From a virus: DNA of 64,000 nucleotides. The DNA lies in IMG/VR virus record IMGVR_UViG_3300047160_020099, positions 32,001-96,000 of that record. One strand, given 5' to 3'. The notes under the pieces are model-generated. The model was not told where the DNA came from. It did not search any database and worked only from the letters and a program-made list of their open reading frames with translations. Below, piece after piece: positions 31,295 through 50,099 of this stretch; positions within the stretch are counted from its first letter, which is position 1; every line of letters begins with the position of its first letter. The translations under genes and the position numbers were made by a program.

Positions 31295-32026
31295 ATGGAC
31301 TCGTTACTTGAGCCTGAATTCAAGCAACCGTTTGAGCTCTGGAAGCAGGACCCAGGCCCGCATACGGCTGGTCCTTTCCTGGCGGCCATCGACCCGGTGC
31401 TGCAGTCCGCCATACGGACTTATGGAGGTAGCCGGCCCAGCACGGCGCTGCATAGCCACGCCAAGTTGCTGGCACTCGATGCCGCGGCTCGCTACGACCC
31501 ATCACGGGCGAAGCTGCGTACCCATCTGATGACCAATCTCCAGGGCCTGCGACGCATCGGCGCCCGGCAAACGCAGATCATCTCCGTGCCGGAAAGAGTC
31601 GGTCTGGACCTGCATCGGTTGCATATTGCCAACCAGGAACTGCACGATCGGCTTGGTAGGGAGCCTTCGGACGCCGAGCTTGCTGACCACACGGGGCTGT
31701 CTCTGAAGCGGCTGACGCACATTCGCAGGGCTCGTCCCGGCTTTGCCGAGAGTCAGCTCGTATCGCGACACGAGGACAGTGAAACGACCTTCAACCCAGC
31801 GGTGACAGACACGGGCGATGACACCTGGGTCAACTTCGTCTATCACGACCTGCAGCCGACGGACCAGCTCATTCTCGAACACATCCTCGGCCTGCATGGC
31901 AAACGGGTCTTGTCAAAGCAACAGATAGCAGCCAAGCTGAAGTTGTCGCCTGGTGCTATCAGTCAGAGGGCTGCTAAGATCCAGATGATGCTGGACAAAC
32001 GGGATGAACTGGGGACGTTCTTCTGA
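31295..32026 (+). CDS. Phage-encoded sigma-70-family (FliA/SigF-like) sigma factor
   Basis: Region 2 (RYDPSRAKLRTHL), region 3 (RLGREPSDAELADHTGLS), region 4 HTH (SKQQIAAKLKLSPGAISQR). Confidence 0.88.
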   Translation: MDSLLEPEFKQPFELWKQDPGPHTAGPFLAAIDPVLQSAIRTYGGSRPSTALHSHAKLLALDAAARYDPSRAKLRTHLMTNLQGLRRIGARQTQIISVPERVGLDLHRLHIANQELHDRLGREPSDAELADHTGLSLKRLTHIRRARPGFAESQLVSRHEDSETTFNPAVTDTGDDTWVNFVYHDLQPTDQLILEHILGLHGKRVLSKQQIAAKLKLSPGAISQRAAKIQMMLDKRDELGTFF

Positions 32027-37990: not shown

Positions 37991-38031
37991 TTATTGGTAG
38001 AATACGGGCGGACCACTGCCAGGAGGGCACC

Positions 38032-44328: not shown

Positions 44329-44359
44329 AAGGCCGGGCAGAAGCCCGGCCTTTTTGTTT
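44329..44359 (+). terminator. Rho-independent terminator
   Basis: GGCCGGGC-AGAA-GCCCGGCC followed by TTTTTGTTT. Confidence 0.85.
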
Positions 44360-44383
44360 GGTAGAATCGGGCTGGAGGCACAC

Positions 44384-44821: not shown

Positions 44822-45082
44822 ATGCTCATCGACGATTCCACAATCAACGCACTGTTACAACGGCCAGAAATGGTCAGGGAGTTCCCTTTCCTGCTGGCCA
44901 CTACCGAGAATGCAAAGGTATGTTGCGGGCGTAGCCGTCGCGTTGCGAACTACCCAATCATCAAGCAGACGATTGCCGGCATGCCCACGGAGCGTAAGGA
45001 GCTCTTCAAGAAGATGCTGGGCGTGCTTTCTTGCCGAGTTGTCTTCCAGGTCAACAACTCCATCTCCGATATCACGATCTAA
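44822..45082 (+). CDS. Hypothetical protein
   Basis: Packed behind the previous gene; typical codon usage. Confidence 0.7.
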   Translation: MLIDDSTINALLQRPEMVREFPFLLATTENAKVCCGRSRRVANYPIIKQTIAGMPTERKELFKKMLGVLSCRVVFQVNNSISDITI

Positions 45083-45108
45083 AATAGTCGTAAAAGTGCG
45101 ACATTATT
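45080..45108 (+). promoter_or_regulatory. Candidate promoter TAAA-N14-GCGACATTATT for the structured RNA
   Basis: Same spacing as 232 and 644; predicted start near 45113 coincides with the first helix. Confidence 0.5.
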
Positions 45109-45112
45109 GTAT

Positions 45113-45778
45113 GCAGGATCACTACTTCTCGGCCTTTTCGGCCGGGAAGGAATGGCCTGCGACAGGAATCAGCTGTTGGCTTTGGAGTACATCTTGAGCA
45201 CCATTGAGATGTCGGCGAAAGCCGGCCTCCGAGGCCTCCCCTCGCTGATTCTTGTGGCCCCGGCGTGCTAACACCACGCCGGGGTCCCAAACGGTGTGTT
45301 GTGCGCAAGCTGACCGGCCTAACATCACCTACAAAAGCCGGCCTACACGAGGGCCGGTTCGACGTGCGAAAGCACGGACTGTGGCCTGTCCCCTGAAAGA
45401 CACGGGGCAATGGTGATACAACACACCGAACAGGGGCGGGCGCACGCCCGCGTCGCCGCCCCTGCCACTGTCCCTGTGAGCGAACACAGGGGGACAGGCC
45501 GCCAGCGGTCGAGCGACCGGCCAATCGACCGCTGGCACCTTCTAACATCGCCCGGCTTTCTGTCCTTCGCTGGGCGGTGTTGCCAGCGGCCGGCCCCGGT
45601 CAAGTGTACGGCCGCTGGCATTTCAGCTGCCTCCTGCCGGGAGCCTGTCCGCCCCGGCCCACATCGAAATCCTTCACGCCGCTTTGTTAAGCGGGTGGAT
45701 GATTGTGCCGGCAGCCCCCTGCCCGGCCTACAATCCTCTTACCCACTTCTCAAGCTCGTGATAGGATTACCGATGTGG
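45113..45778 (+). ncRNA. Candidate large, highly structured non-coding RNA (~670 nt), family unassigned
   Basis: Longest gene-free gap in the window; more than 15 nested or adjacent helices with G-U pairs, two GAAA tetraloops and complementary loops. Confidence 0.75.
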
Positions 45779-45834
45779 ATTTCATCCATCTTTGTCTTGT
45801 AGGACGACCTTTGCTTTACATATTGGGGAACCCA

Positions 45835-46113
45835 ATGCTCCGTTTCATCGAAGATAAGTGCGTCCAGACACCACAGAACATGTTGGTGATTGTAGAGGCC
45901 GACACCCCGCCCGAATTGACCAACCGTCAGGCACGCGACGCTGTGCTGGTCTGGGCCAGGCGACAGGGCTTTCCGGCCCGAGGGATCAGTGGCATCCCAC
46001 AGACCTATCCTGTTGACGCGAAGGGTGAGACCAACCCCGAGGTCGTGATGGGCAAGGTGCCTACCGCTGCACATCGAGCTGACTATCAACTGAGCGCCGG
46101 GATTGTCGTGTGA
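45835..46113 (+). CDS. Hypothetical protein (start refined from track 45703)
   Basis: GGGGA RBS inside a small ATTGGG/CCCAAT hairpin; GTGA overlap with next gene. Confidence 0.7.
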   Translation: MLRFIEDKCVQTPQNMLVIVEADTPPELTNRQARDAVLVWARRQGFPARGISGIPQTYPVDAKGETNPEVVMGKVPTAAHRADYQLSAGIVV

Positions 46114-46640: not shown

Positions 46641-47346
46641 GAATCGTCTGGCGACCTTCTGGCGCGATCCTCAGATGTTTGGCTTCAACCTCCTGGTATT
46701 GTTCATGGACGTCTACGGAGCCGAAGGCCTCAACTGGATGCCTGAGACTATCGAGATGGAGATCCGCGACGACAGTGGCGTCGATCTGCCGGAAGCCAAC
46801 TTCGACAAGCTGCTGACAGCCATTTCTCTTCTTGTCACTGACAACTTCTTCGTGAGCCCGACAGACTTCACACGAGCGTGTGTGGTCCTGTCAGGCCATG
46901 TCGTGAACCCCGGTTCTCTGATCCTGCCCGACTGTGCCGATCTGGCCTGGGGCCTCACCGAAGGCATGATGATCAATCCACCTGACGAAGATAACGAGGC
47001 ACCCTTCTCGAAAGAGATTGTTGCTTACGTAGGTGCGTGTCTGAATGACGAAGGTATTCTGAACCCTCCTGATATCCTGCGTATCGGCCTCCGTGACAAA
47101 GATTTGGCTGACAACGCACGGTACAGCTTTTCCGACGACCCGGAGATGATGGCGGCGATTTCTGGCTTCGAAGAAGACAAGACGTCGTCCATCAACTCTC
47201 TGGTTCTCAACCGGCTCAAGGACCTGTTCGCGCAACTCCAGTTGTTGCCCCTCAAGAACGGTCAGGCCGTTGCTGTAGCACGGAAGATGATGGCCGGGCT
47301 GGCCCATCAACCCGCTAGCGGCTCACCGCTAAATTCACCCGTTTGA
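46615..47346 (+). CDS. Hypothetical acidic protein
   Basis: AGGAG RBS; 243 aa. Confidence 0.78.
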   Translation: MPSEYQLLENRLATFWRDPQMFGFNLLVLFMDVYGAEGLNWMPETIEMEIRDDSGVDLPEANFDKLLTAISLLVTDNFFVSPTDFTRACVVLSGHVVNPGSLILPDCADLAWGLTEGMMINPPDEDNEAPFSKEIVAYVGACLNDEGILNPPDILRIGLRDKDLADNARYSFSDDPEMMAAISGFEEDKTSSINSLVLNRLKDLFAQLQLLPLKNGQAVAVARKMMAGLAHQPASGSPLNSPV

Positions 47347-47359
47347 GTATTGGAATACA
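47346..47359. repeat. Dispersed palindrome variant AGTATTGGAATACA
   Basis: One mismatch; overlaps a TGA stop, upstream of the AAA ATPase. Confidence 0.65.
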
Positions 47360-47411
47360 TGCAGTTGTCGGTACCACGGGGTGCCGGCGTATCGCTGCGC
47401 GCGGAGATCCG

Positions 47412-50099
47412 ATGAAGACATCGTTCGTTGATGACCTGGTTTACAAGTTCAAGTCCGGCTTCCCGGTTACTGCCGTCAATACGACAGAGACAGACCGCTG
47501 TATCCAGGAGATCAAGACTGCCGGCTGGTTGATGGGTGAAGGTTGCAAGGTCACACTCACGCCAGCTGACCGCAACCTGTTCAAGACCCTGTTCAACACG
47601 TATACGGAATACAGCTGCCCGCTGACACCTTCTGGCGAGTTGACTGCGGACATCAAGAAGCTGGTCGCTCTCATGCGACGGCTTTGCCACGAGAAGTCCG
47701 AGGCCGCGGCAGACGTTGACCGACTGCTCGATACGGTCGGCTACCCGGTCATTACCTGGAGCCATACCGGGGGCTTCGATAACGGCGCCGGCGACGTCGA
47801 GCTGGACCAGGCGCTGGTCATGGCGGCCCAACCGTATGACAGCAAGGCACGCGACAAGAACCCGCTGCCGCGCTTTTGCATCCTTGTGTACAAGAACGCG
47901 AACGAGTTTCTGGACCCGCCCGGCCCGGAGTGTGCCCGTTTCCGCTCAGCACTACACACCATCTTCTGCGGCAACCGGCTCGTTGACGGCAGCATCCGGC
48001 GGCTGGTTATCATGCTCCAGCCAGACTGGACGCCGCACACACAGATCGCTCACTGCGTCAACTTCGTGGAGTTCGAGCCACCGAACGAGGAGCAGCTCTC
48101 CCACGAAGTCACGTATGTCGAGGAGTCGTTGCAGTCTTCCAAGCGGGACGTGGTGAAGACCTGCCCGACCGAGCTGCGTAAGCCCATCATTACGGCACTG
48201 CGAGGTTTCACCCAGCACGAAGCCGTGAATGCGCTGGCCTACTGCATCGTCAAGCATCGTGGCTTCTGCCCAGACATGGTACCCACCTTGCACGGGCTGA
48301 AAGCCGAGACCTTGAAGCGGGACGAGGTCCTGGAGTACATCGACGCCGAGTACCTGGCCACCACGGATCAGATCGGCGGCTACGAGAACTACCTGGAATT
48401 CATCAGCGAGTGCCAGGAGTGCTACACGGACGAGGCGGCCAAGGCTGGACTAAAGAAGCCCAAGGGCGTGCTGCTCCTGGGCCTTCCTGGATGCGTAGCT
48501 GAAGACACGATGGTCTCTTACCGTCGGGGTAAACGAACCGGCAACAGAAGTTTGCCGATCAACGTCTTTTGCGACAAGGTGAATGGCACCGAACATCATC
48601 ATGCTGGCGTGAAATGGAAGCCAGGATTGGATACGTATTTGCAATCCTTCAACCCGGAGACTGGAAGGATCTTCTATAACCTAGTCAAAGGTGTTTACAA
48701 GAAGGGGCGTAAACATTGCATACGTATCATCACCGATAACGCTGGCTCAGTCACCCTGACCGATGACCATCCAATTATGACGGCTGAGATTATTTTCAAA
48801 GCCGCCGGTGAACTACGAGTTGGTGATAAGCTTCTGGTGCGTGGCAATATGCACCCCACTAAGTTGGCCAATAAGACGGCTCCAAAACATAAACGCCGGG
48901 TCACGGTTGAAACTCTTAAATATCACCCTCGCGGCTGGCCTCATCCGGTAAAAGAGCCAACGACCGGTAAGGTTTACACCTATCTGCGGCAGCACCGAGC
49001 CAGGCTGGTGCTAGAAGCACATATGAACGGATTGGCCTATGAAGAATTCATCCGAATTCTGCAGAAAGAGCCGACAACGGCTTCAGCATTGAAGTATCTC
49101 GAAGATGGTTTGGAGGTTCATCATCAGAACGAAGATCCAACCGACGACCGTCTGGAAAATCTGCTGGTACTGACAAAGCCGGCTCATACGAAGTTGCACT
49201 GTGATGAAAGTCGTTTCAACGTTGCGTATACAACTGAAGCGACTATTACCGGGATCGAAGCTGTCGGTTACCGCGAGACATATGACGTTTCCATGGAAGA
49301 TCCGTACGCCAACTTCGTGGTTAATGATGGGATCATAGCCCATAACACTGGGAAAAGTATGGTGGGCATGGCCACCGCCCGCATCATGAGCCTGCCGCTT
49401 GTGAAGTATGACTTCGGCAGTGTATTCGGTGGCATCGTCGGCCAGAGCGAAAGCACCCAGCGTCGCGTGTTGAAGCGGGTGACAGCTCTCGGCCCGTGCG
49501 TCCTGCTGATCGACGAGGCGGATAAGGCCTTTGCCGGGATGGACCAGACCATCGGTGATTCCGGCACCGGCCAGCGTGTCTTCGGGCGGCTCCTTACATG
49601 GATGGCCACCGAGAACACGGATGCGTTCATCGTGATGACCATGAACCGGCTGAAGGGTGTCCCCGTCGAGATGCTGCGTGCCGGCCGGCTCGACGCCACT
49701 TTCTACACCGAGTTCCCCAGTCCACCAGAGCGGCAAGAGATCCTGGCCATTCACATGAGGAAGAATGGCGTGGATCCCAACTGCTTCGACCGCAACGACT
49801 GGAAGACCCTGGTCAATATCACGGAAGACTTTGCCGGCGCCGAGTTGGAACAGCTCGTCATCAAGGCCGTACGCACTGCCTGGAAGGCAACCAAACTGGT
49901 GCAGCCGAAGATAGCCCACCTGGAGGCCGCGCGGGTCTCTGTGAACCCGGTCGCGCACCTTGACAGAGAGGGCATGCAGAAGATCCTCGAATTTTGCCAG
50001 GACAAGGCCACGCCTGTCAGCAAGAAGAAGCGTATCGCCAAGTCGCAGGTTGGTCGGCTGCGAAGCAGCATCCTGGTTGACAACCCGGAGAACAACTAA
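47412..50099 (+). CDS. Ycf46-like AAA+ ATPase with an intein in the Walker A motif
   Basis: IGGYEN, PKGVLLLGLPG/TGKS, VGQSE, LLIDEADK, RAGRLD; GGAG RBS before ATG 47412. Confidence 0.9.
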   Translation: MKTSFVDDLVYKFKSGFPVTAVNTTETDRCIQEIKTAGWLMGEGCKVTLTPADRNLFKTLFNTYTEYSCPLTPSGELTADIKKLVALMRRLCHEKSEAAADVDRLLDTVGYPVITWSHTGGFDNGAGDVELDQALVMAAQPYDSKARDKNPLPRFCILVYKNANEFLDPPGPECARFRSALHTIFCGNRLVDGSIRRLVIMLQPDWTPHTQIAHCVNFVEFEPPNEEQLSHEVTYVEESLQSSKRDVVKTCPTELRKPIITALRGFTQHEAVNALAYCIVKHRGFCPDMVPTLHGLKAETLKRDEVLEYIDAEYLATTDQIGGYENYLEFISECQECYTDEAAKAGLKKPKGVLLLGLPGCVAEDTMVSYRRGKRTGNRSLPINVFCDKVNGTEHHHAGVKWKPGLDTYLQSFNPETGRIFYNLVKGVYKKGRKHCIRIITDNAGSVTLTDDHPIMTAEIIFKAAGELRVGDKLLVRGNMHPTKLANKTAPKHKRRVTVETLKYHPRGWPHPVKEPTTGKVYTYLRQHRARLVLEAHMNGLAYEEFIRILQKEPTTASALKYLEDGLEVHHQNEDPTDDRLENLLVLTKPAHTKLHCDESRFNVAYTTEATITGIEAVGYRETYDVSMEDPYANFVVNDGIIAHNTGKSMVGMATARIMSLPLVKYDFGSVFGGIVGQSESTQRRVLKRVTALGPCVLLIDEADKAFAGMDQTIGDSGTGQRVFGRLLTWMATENTDAFIVMTMNRLKGVPVEMLRAGRLDATFYTEFPSPPERQEILAIHMRKNGVDPNCFDRNDWKTLVNITEDFAGAELEQLVIKAVRTAWKATKLVQPKIAHLEAARVSVNPVAHLDREGMQKILEFCQDKATPVSKKKRIAKSQVGRLRSSILVDNPENN
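48492..49346 (+). mobile_element. Intein (285 aa) carrying an HNH endonuclease
   Basis: Starts CVAEDT; block B LTDDHPI; ends TYDVSM...NFVVNDGIIAHN with Thr at +1; internal VHHQNEDPTDDRLENL; lower GC. Confidence 0.93.

Follow-up and report, generated by a model that had tools for sequence, protein, structure and literature searches.

Introduction

Intercistronic RNase III hairpins are known from phages, as in the early region of T7 and at sib of lambda, and T4-type phages carry terminator-promoter cassettes; stems of 40-50 bp should be substrates of RNase III. Kissing-loop complexes are exemplified by the HIV-1 DIS dimer and by RNA I/RNA II of ColE1, in which the complementarity of the loops is conserved and has been functionally shown. 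Promoters of the sigma28 (FliA) type have the form TAAA-N15-GCCGATAA. The large ornate RNAs GOLLD, ROOL and OLE are homo-oligomeric assemblies made of RNA only (PMC12286853).

The element described here, from an uncultured phage, matches no described RNA family and is of a familiar kind for phages, a structured RNA, intergenic or in a leader, found at the boundary of a module. With the arrangements of T7, lambda sib and the T4-type phages it shares long near-perfect stems that separate operons of the phage and lie on the strand that is transcribed, as well as a promoter that overlaps with a hairpin where two modules meet; it differs from them in that its stems, all of them predicted, are longer (~45-50 bp) and more numerous, in that no sequence relationship was seen, and in that the hairpin sequesters a whole promoter sequence in RNA. 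Like GOLLD, ROOL and OLE it is a candidate non-coding RNA of several hundred nucleotides, phage-associated and strongly structured. Unlike these RNAs and raiA, it gave no covariance-model match and has no conserved multi-junction core; only its terminal hairpin is conserved and covaries, and this in five phages only. Its part with the repeated loop words has no homologue at all, in contrast to GOLLD, ROOL and OLE. The resemblance to HIV-1 DIS and to RNA I/RNA II consists of two apical loops with a GC-rich Watson-Crick match of 6 bp and a palindromic CCGG core, whereas the complementarity in the phage lies at chance level (23%), comes from hairpin duplication and fits equally well an ordinary helix in a rod-shaped fold.

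Genomic setting and structure of the gap

The window, that is, the whole stretch of 64,000 nucleotides that was analysed, corresponds to bases 32001-96000 of a 161,936-bp IMG/VR virus contig, and its plus strand holds nearly all of its genes. A gene-free gap of 752 nt (45083-45834) was found between two small ORFs of 86 and 92 aa, neither of which matched a Pfam or PHROG family, with a collagen-repeat tail fibre directly upstream of the gap region and, downstream, an AAA+ ATPase that contains an HNH insert. The stretch 45309-45650, for which the sequence-only reading had proposed kissing loops, competing pairings or multimerisation on the grounds of its repeated and complementary words, is the middle of this gap (Table 1). 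The stop codon TAA of the upstream ORF provides the first three letters of a promoter-like -35 word, TAAA, and homologues of this ORF occupied the same position in the related loci L003, L004, L006, L177, L178 and L096. A coding explanation of the gap was rejected: the spurious ORFs listed inside it matched no Pfam family, and the gaps of the relatives differ by up to 600 nt in length.

The gap folded far better than its shuffled versions, with z = -12.1 on the plus strand and z = -9.2 on the minus strand, and a z of -6.8 was obtained for 45309-45650 alone. Screening of the whole window with Rfam 15 gave nothing at the gathering score, and a permissive Rfam search of 44900-46000 returned only chance-level matches, all of them to models of unrelated miRNAs and sRNAs. 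Neither a riboswitch nor a leader family was matched in these searches, no recognisable ligand or factor site was seen, and a tRNA and tmRNA search found none.

Table 1. Coordinates of the genes, signals and predicted structures in and around the gap (positions of the window).
Feature	Position	Strand	Basis and remarks
Upstream 86-aa ORF	44822-45082	+	ORF list; small CC-G-R motif
Promoter-like motif TAAA-N14/15-GCGNCAnnAT	45080-45107	+	sigma28/FliA format; recurrence in the genome and in relatives
5' hairpins H1-H3	45112-45286	+	MFE and centroid folds; include a perfect 12-bp hairpin at 45256-45286 with loop CUAACAC
Multi-branch domain	45292-45428	+	Inverted repeats, partition function; closed by the perfect 11-bp helix 45292-302/45418-428
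Perfect 11-bp helix 45383-93/45490-500	45383-45500	+	Inverted repeat, partition function; formed by GCCTGTCC and GGACAGGC
Three-hairpin module H7-H8-H9	45501-45620	+	Inverted repeats, partition function, constrained folding
H7	45501-45536	+	12-bp stem, 12-nt loop with GACCGG
H8	45544-45581	+	Between H7 and H9; 12-nt pyrimidine loop with CTGTCC
H9	45582-45619	+	12-bp stem, 16-nt loop with CCGGTC
Small hairpin H10	45636-45658	+	Partition function; fourth CTGTCC (GCCTGTCC at 45643) in the loop
Conserved terminal hairpin, ~120 nt	45659-45778	+	Covariation, covariance model
Pyrimidine-rich word (CCTTTGCTTTA...ATTGG; CCTTTnCTTTA..ATTGG)	45808-45826	+	Just before the downstream start codon; kept in relatives
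Downstream 92-aa ORF	45835-46113	+	First gene of the operon leading to the AAA+ ATPase

Relatives of the locus

The phages in GenBank gave no match by DNA or with a neighbouring 243-aa protein, indicating that there was no cultured phage match; searches of IMG/VR for the locus with single proteins, three neighbouring ones in all, brought up no close relative, and the homologues of the 243-aa protein had at most 62% identity. An alignment of the upstream protein proved too divergent to guide a search of this kind. About 185 related loci were obtained from the contigs of these homologues and from profile-guided searches of IMG/VR and the JGI metagenomes, and they come from a clade of uncultured phages of roughly 160-230 kb, the longest contigs in the set being of about 180-235 kb. 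The gene order of the window (small ORF, gap, 92-aa ORF) was kept only in L003, L004, L006/L007, L096, L177, L178 and three further contigs.

The syntenic gaps were ~170 to 750 nt long and all of them were strongly structured (z = -4 to -10), and no cross-similarity in primary sequence was detected among them with nhmmer. Their middle part measured ~25 nt in L004 and L006, ~100 nt in L177, ~330 nt in L003 and ~545 nt in the window, and could not be aligned. No homologue of 45309-45650 was detectable in the 175+ related loci or in IMG/VR, and when IMG/VR was scanned for the exact stem pattern of H7-H8-H9, only three unrelated chance matches came up.

UUCG and GNRA tetraloops were present in the predicted folds. 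G-U pairs were more numerous on the plus than on the minus strand in the relatives (26 vs 9 in L003, 8 vs 2 in L006, 14 vs 6 in L177 and 23 vs 14 in L178), which points to selection on a plus strand RNA. The window itself is strand-symmetric in this respect (20 on the plus vs 19 on the minus strand), so that for the window the plus strand is argued from the relatives, from the promoter and from the orientation of the genes.

Promoter-like motif and terminal hairpin

The promoter-like motif at the 5' end of the gap had the same position in five syntenic phages (the window, L003, L004, L006 and L177), with a spacer that was not conserved. Three more copies were located in the genome, at 30617 (window coordinate -1383), 142695-142722 (~110695) and 149182-149209 (117182), and at each of these a 5' hairpin, a Shine-Dalgarno sequence and a start codon or gene were found within 60-70 nt downstream. 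Two blocks in the format of sigma28/FliA promoters were present upstream of transcription units, a TAAA word as the -35 element and, at N14/15, a -10 block that starts with GC; the phage -10 block is GCGNCAnnAT and not the GCCGATAA of sigma28 promoters. Judged by this recurrence, the motif is probably a phage promoter of sigma28-like format, with an RNA start expected at about 45113. A diverged ORF of the sigma70 family (31295-32026) had a Sigma70_r3 match above the cut-off, an RpoD match far below its cut-off and a weak FliA/WhiG match (30.6 bits vs a cut-off of 189.6), and this sigma factor may be the one that acts at the motif.

At the other end of the gap, the terminal hairpin was common to the window, L003, L004, L006 and L177. 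In a MAFFT alignment of the five sequences, 83.5% of the cells paired, in comparison with 34-46% when the partners were slid, and 19 of the 32 pairs had changed on both sides; none of 500 shuffles reached the observed values. A covariance model built from the hairpin (R1) scored 79-112 bits on the plus strand vs 24-32 bits on the minus strand, and its search against 100 sources found only its five training sequences. For the window a hairpin of 47 pairs is predicted, and for the relatives hairpins of 40-55 pairs, beyond the length of ~20 bp or more expected of an RNase III substrate. In the window it folded slightly better on the minus strand (-63.7 kcal/mol vs -56.7 kcal/mol on the plus strand).

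The 3' arm of the terminal hairpin contains a conserved -35-like word (45739-44), a spacer of 17-18 nt and an extended -10 element, TGnTAGGAT (45759-67), so that the RNA hairpin would bury the sigma70-type promoter sequence of the next operon. The extended -10 consensus across the hairpin homologues, read by eye on the alignment, is TGnTAGrAT; it was also found before the genes at 37995 (37995-38003) and 44359 (44359-44367), one copy lying directly 3' of a terminator-like hairpin. No clean intrinsic terminator was called after 45778 in a terminator scan. The tail that follows this position is U-rich but interrupted; UUUU stands directly after the homologous stem in L177, and there is none in L006.

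A predicted non-coding transcript across the gap

With moderate confidence, the folding and the comparison with relatives lead us to regard 45309-45650 as probably the lineage-specific middle of a non-coding plus strand transcript of ~670 nt, which would be a long leader or else an RNA of its own, and its repeated words as by-products. The transcript would start at about 45113, just 3' of the promoter-like motif, would pass through a string of GC-rich hairpins, and would end in, or read through, the hairpin at 45659-45778, with which the sigma70-type promoter for the downstream operon overlaps. The hairpin array would act in cis: as judged from the length of the stems only, its long double-stranded stems may confer stability against nucleases and should be substrates of RNase III, and the stems, including the terminal hairpin, may attenuate read-through into the downstream operon. 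Under this model the selected parts would be the promoter and the terminal hairpin, and the middle would be free to expand or contract.

Loop words and their statistics

The words that the sequence-only reading had pointed out were all located where it had placed them: GACCGG at 45312 and 45515, CCGGTC at 45596, CTGTCC in four copies (45386, 45468, 45560 and 45645, the first and last extending to GCCTGTCC at 45384 and 45643), and GGACAGGC in a single copy at 45492-499. Pairing probabilities were derived from a partition-function fold of 45108-45834, which placed four of the words in hairpin loops, including two copies of CTGTCC, as had been claimed. GACCGG at 45515 and CCGGTC at 45596 lay in large apical loops (p unpaired 0.83 and 0.85, respectively), CTGTCC at 45560 in a pyrimidine loop of 12 nt (p unpaired 1.00) and CTGTCC at 45645 in a small loop (p unpaired 0.74). 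The GCCTGTCC at 45384 was paired (p unpaired 0.03), chiefly with GGACAGGC at 45492-99 (p ~0.6), and CTGTCC at 45468 was a competing local partner of GGACAGGC (45492-97, p ~0.22).

In 1000 dinucleotide shuffles of 45108-45834, some hexamer occurred at least four times in 53% of the cases, and a hexamer with at least four copies whose reverse complement was also present occurred in 23%. When the sequences of the 16 hairpin loops were shuffled within loops, 23% of the shuffles gave two loops able to pair over 6 or more consecutive Watson-Crick bp, and 25% gave a hexamer common to two loops; CUGUCC, in two loops, was the only such hexamer observed. The word pattern is mostly at chance level, and the copies of CTGTCC beyond the 11-bp helix are chance-level bare 6-mers, two of which happen to be in loops. 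The local density of CTGTCC, with four copies in 0.75 kb in comparison with 0.28 per kb genome-wide, counts against the reading of the words as by-products. The non-random part is in the helices and the overall fold rather than in the words: four perfect inverted repeats of at least 11 nt were seen vs 0.08 expected, and none of 300 shuffles reached four.

Two other words were recorded in the gap. CCGGCC occurred seven times (p = 0.006 by shuffles), and CCGGCCTA was present at 45314, 45338 and 45723, three of its eight copies in the 162-kb genome, with no copy of its reverse complement. The whole H8 loop (45557-45568) also has a perfect 12-nt complement at 108722-108733 of the genome (window coordinate 76722, outside the window); this was rejected as an antisense target, since the site falls in the middle of an ORF (256 aa) and not at a ribosome-binding site. 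The match is probably due to chance, with ~0.01 expected per loop.

None of the loop words was conserved in the relatives: L177 had neither CTGTCC nor GGACAG, L178 had one CTGTCC and L003 had one of each. The GCCTGTCC 8-mer was also found directly 5' of the terminal hairpin in L003, the closest relative. In each of the syntenic relatives the middle part either is missing or cannot be aligned, and the conservation of the loops therefore cannot be shown.

Predicted competing helices in the middle part

The duplex 45383-93/45490-500, one of the four perfect repeats of at least 11 nt, has a predicted energy of -24.6 kcal/mol and competes with a local hairpin (45468-45497) that uses the CTGTCC at 45468. 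In this fold GGACAGGC would already be taken up as the 3' strand of an ordinary, strong helix and would not be available to pair with displayed loops. The same duplex crosses the 11-bp helix 45292-302/45418-428, which closes a domain with two C(GAAA)G tetraloops and the copy of GACCGG that starts at 45312, so that the two helices must alternate or form a pseudoknot; as modelled, this crossing is the best in silico support for competing pairings.

H7 and H9 are near-duplicates, with 30 of the 36 bases of H7 identical in the alignment, the same outer stem sequence and loops built alike around a palindromic CCGG core, and the complementarity between the GACCGG and CCGGTC loops follows from this. 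Each of the two hairpins is palindromic and they flank H8, which gives the 120-nt module an overall dyad symmetry and leaves two folds open to it, three hairpins or a single rod. For 45498-45623 the predicted energies were -76.8 kcal/mol for three hairpins and -76.0 kcal/mol for the rod, the latter obtained by forcing 45515-20 to pair with 45596-601 and having ~41 predicted pairs. The complementary loops would accordingly be, in these folds, either the middle helix of the alternative rod or, equally possible, a kissing pair of 6 bp. An internal duplication of the halves of the stretch was considered and rejected (local alignment score of 17 vs a shuffle mean of 17.4).

The competing pairings proposed from the sequence thus held up, in silico only, in the form of near-isoenergetic folds, two partners for GGACAGGC and crossing 11-bp helices; they are plausible in the models but are the natural outcome of duplicated palindromic hairpins. 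A conformational switch, in which the module 45498-45623 and the crossing helices would be selected alternatives that set transcription or translation into the downstream operon, could draw on the difference of only 0.8 kcal/mol between the folds, on the division of GGACAGGC between its partners, on the crossing of two highly non-random helices and on the position of the element between a promoter and an operon. We consider it unlikely, given that the rod pairing 45515/45601 reached a p of only ~0.01 in the full-length ensemble, that near-duplicate palindromic hairpins yield such alternatives automatically, that the module is absent from all the relatives, and that there is neither a recognisable ligand or factor site nor a match to a riboswitch or leader family.

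Proposed loop-loop contacts

A duplex between the loops at 45515-20 and 45596-601 would comprise 6 bp with a predicted energy of -11.7 kcal/mol, the extent of apical-loop complementarity (at least 6 nt) expected for kissing, and such a duplex is physically able to kiss, which tempers the chance argument. Functional contacts of this kind, with GACCGG/CCGGUC kissing within or between molecules and displayed CUGUCC loops leading to a cage-like multimer or to the titration of a host RNA or protein, would agree with the presence of four words in predicted loops, with the stability of the loop-loop duplex, with the equal length of the H7 and H9 stems, which could lie side by side, and with the homo-oligomerisation of large ornate RNAs of bacteria and phages (PMC12286853). 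They nevertheless appear decidedly unlikely. The pattern is at chance level, no orthologous loops exist among which covariation could be demonstrated, no model of GOLLD, ROOL, OLE or raiA was matched, the fold consists mostly of hairpins arranged as beads on a string and not of a conserved multi-junction core, and the single GGACAGGC is occupied by the 11-bp helix.

The more specific proposals of the sequence-only reading found no support. Kissing loops had been suggested from a word pattern that arises in 23% of shuffles and has no orthologous loops in the relatives; cage-like multimerisation was accompanied by no match to GOLLD, ROOL, OLE or any other Rfam model; and a role as a sponge for a protein or RNA fitted neither the sharing of CUGUCC between loops, at the level of chance (25%), nor the loops themselves, as GGA was present in 0 of the 16, unlike in the CsrB/RsmZ protein sponges. 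Loop-loop covariation, put forward as a check of these ideas, met with no orthologous loops in any relative, and as far as public data go the loops are unconserved, one part of the outcome that had been named as refuting them. The claim of kissing loops or an RNA cage consequently matters little, with a word pattern that is at chance level and unconserved.

Explanations at the DNA level and other alternatives

The palindromes and short repeats might instead act as DNA, either as sites bound by proteins or as cruciforms, in an origin, in a packaging site or in a regulatory region. Such sites would explain that the stems of the window are equally good on both strands, that CCGGCC is over-represented (7x), that CCGGCCTA is concentrated in the gap with no copy on the other strand, and that the gap stands on a broad minimum of the cumulative GC skew. 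The region has, however, no AT-rich unwinding region and no repeats of iteron length, the skew minimum is a plateau of 16 kb and not a point, the relatives show the plus strand G-U bias and tetraloops of RNA type, and the conserved promoter-like motif is directed into the region. Readings at the DNA level are weaker than the RNA reading, and we regard them as very unlikely; a replication origin at the gap was rejected, the skew minimum being flat over 16 kb and AT-rich region and iterons being absent.

Neutral accretion of hairpins, with the middle as non-functional filler that changes size by local palindrome duplication between selected ends, would account for a middle of ~25 to ~550 nt without common sequence in syntenic phages and for the near-duplicate pair H7/H9, but is highly improbable, since unselected sequence should not hold strong structure (z = -7 to -10) and a plus strand G-U bias in every lineage, and the alignment of the halves of the stretch revealed no significant larger duplication. 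Hardly any weight is likewise given to the ~670-nt transcript being a large non-coding phage RNA of a new class, with a pseudoknot formed by the crossing helices, an H7-H8-H9 assembly by kissing or domain swapping, or a programmed switch between three hairpins and a rod, and CUGUCC loops as contact or target sites.

Conservation and rearrangement at the module boundary

The lead that remains is modest but real: a clade of uncultured phages keeps a structured gap between a phage-specific promoter and a covarying hairpin, with a predicted transcript across it. If transcribed as predicted, the syntenic gaps would offer a natural series for the growth of hairpin arrays in phage leaders, and would allow a test of long stems at module boundaries as devices for processing or attenuation.

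Between the terminal hairpin and the start codon of the downstream gene, the word CCTTTnCTTTA..ATTGG also precedes this gene in L003, L004, L006, L177 and L096, and in distant relatives a related word, CTTAGCTATTGG, was found after terminator hairpins and before a -10-like hexamer; it may represent another class of promoter or operator. In most of the distant relatives (L018, L023, L024, L028, L042 and ~50 other loci) the homologue of the 92-aa gene was inverted relative to the 243-aa gene, indicating that the module boundary has been rearranged within the clade. The AAA+ ATPase of the downstream operon (47343-50099, 918 aa) contained an internal HNH_3 domain at residues 586-615, and the homologues in the relatives were of 540-656 aa and lacked HNH_3; because these are shorter and without the domain, HNH_3 fits an inserted intein or homing endonuclease.
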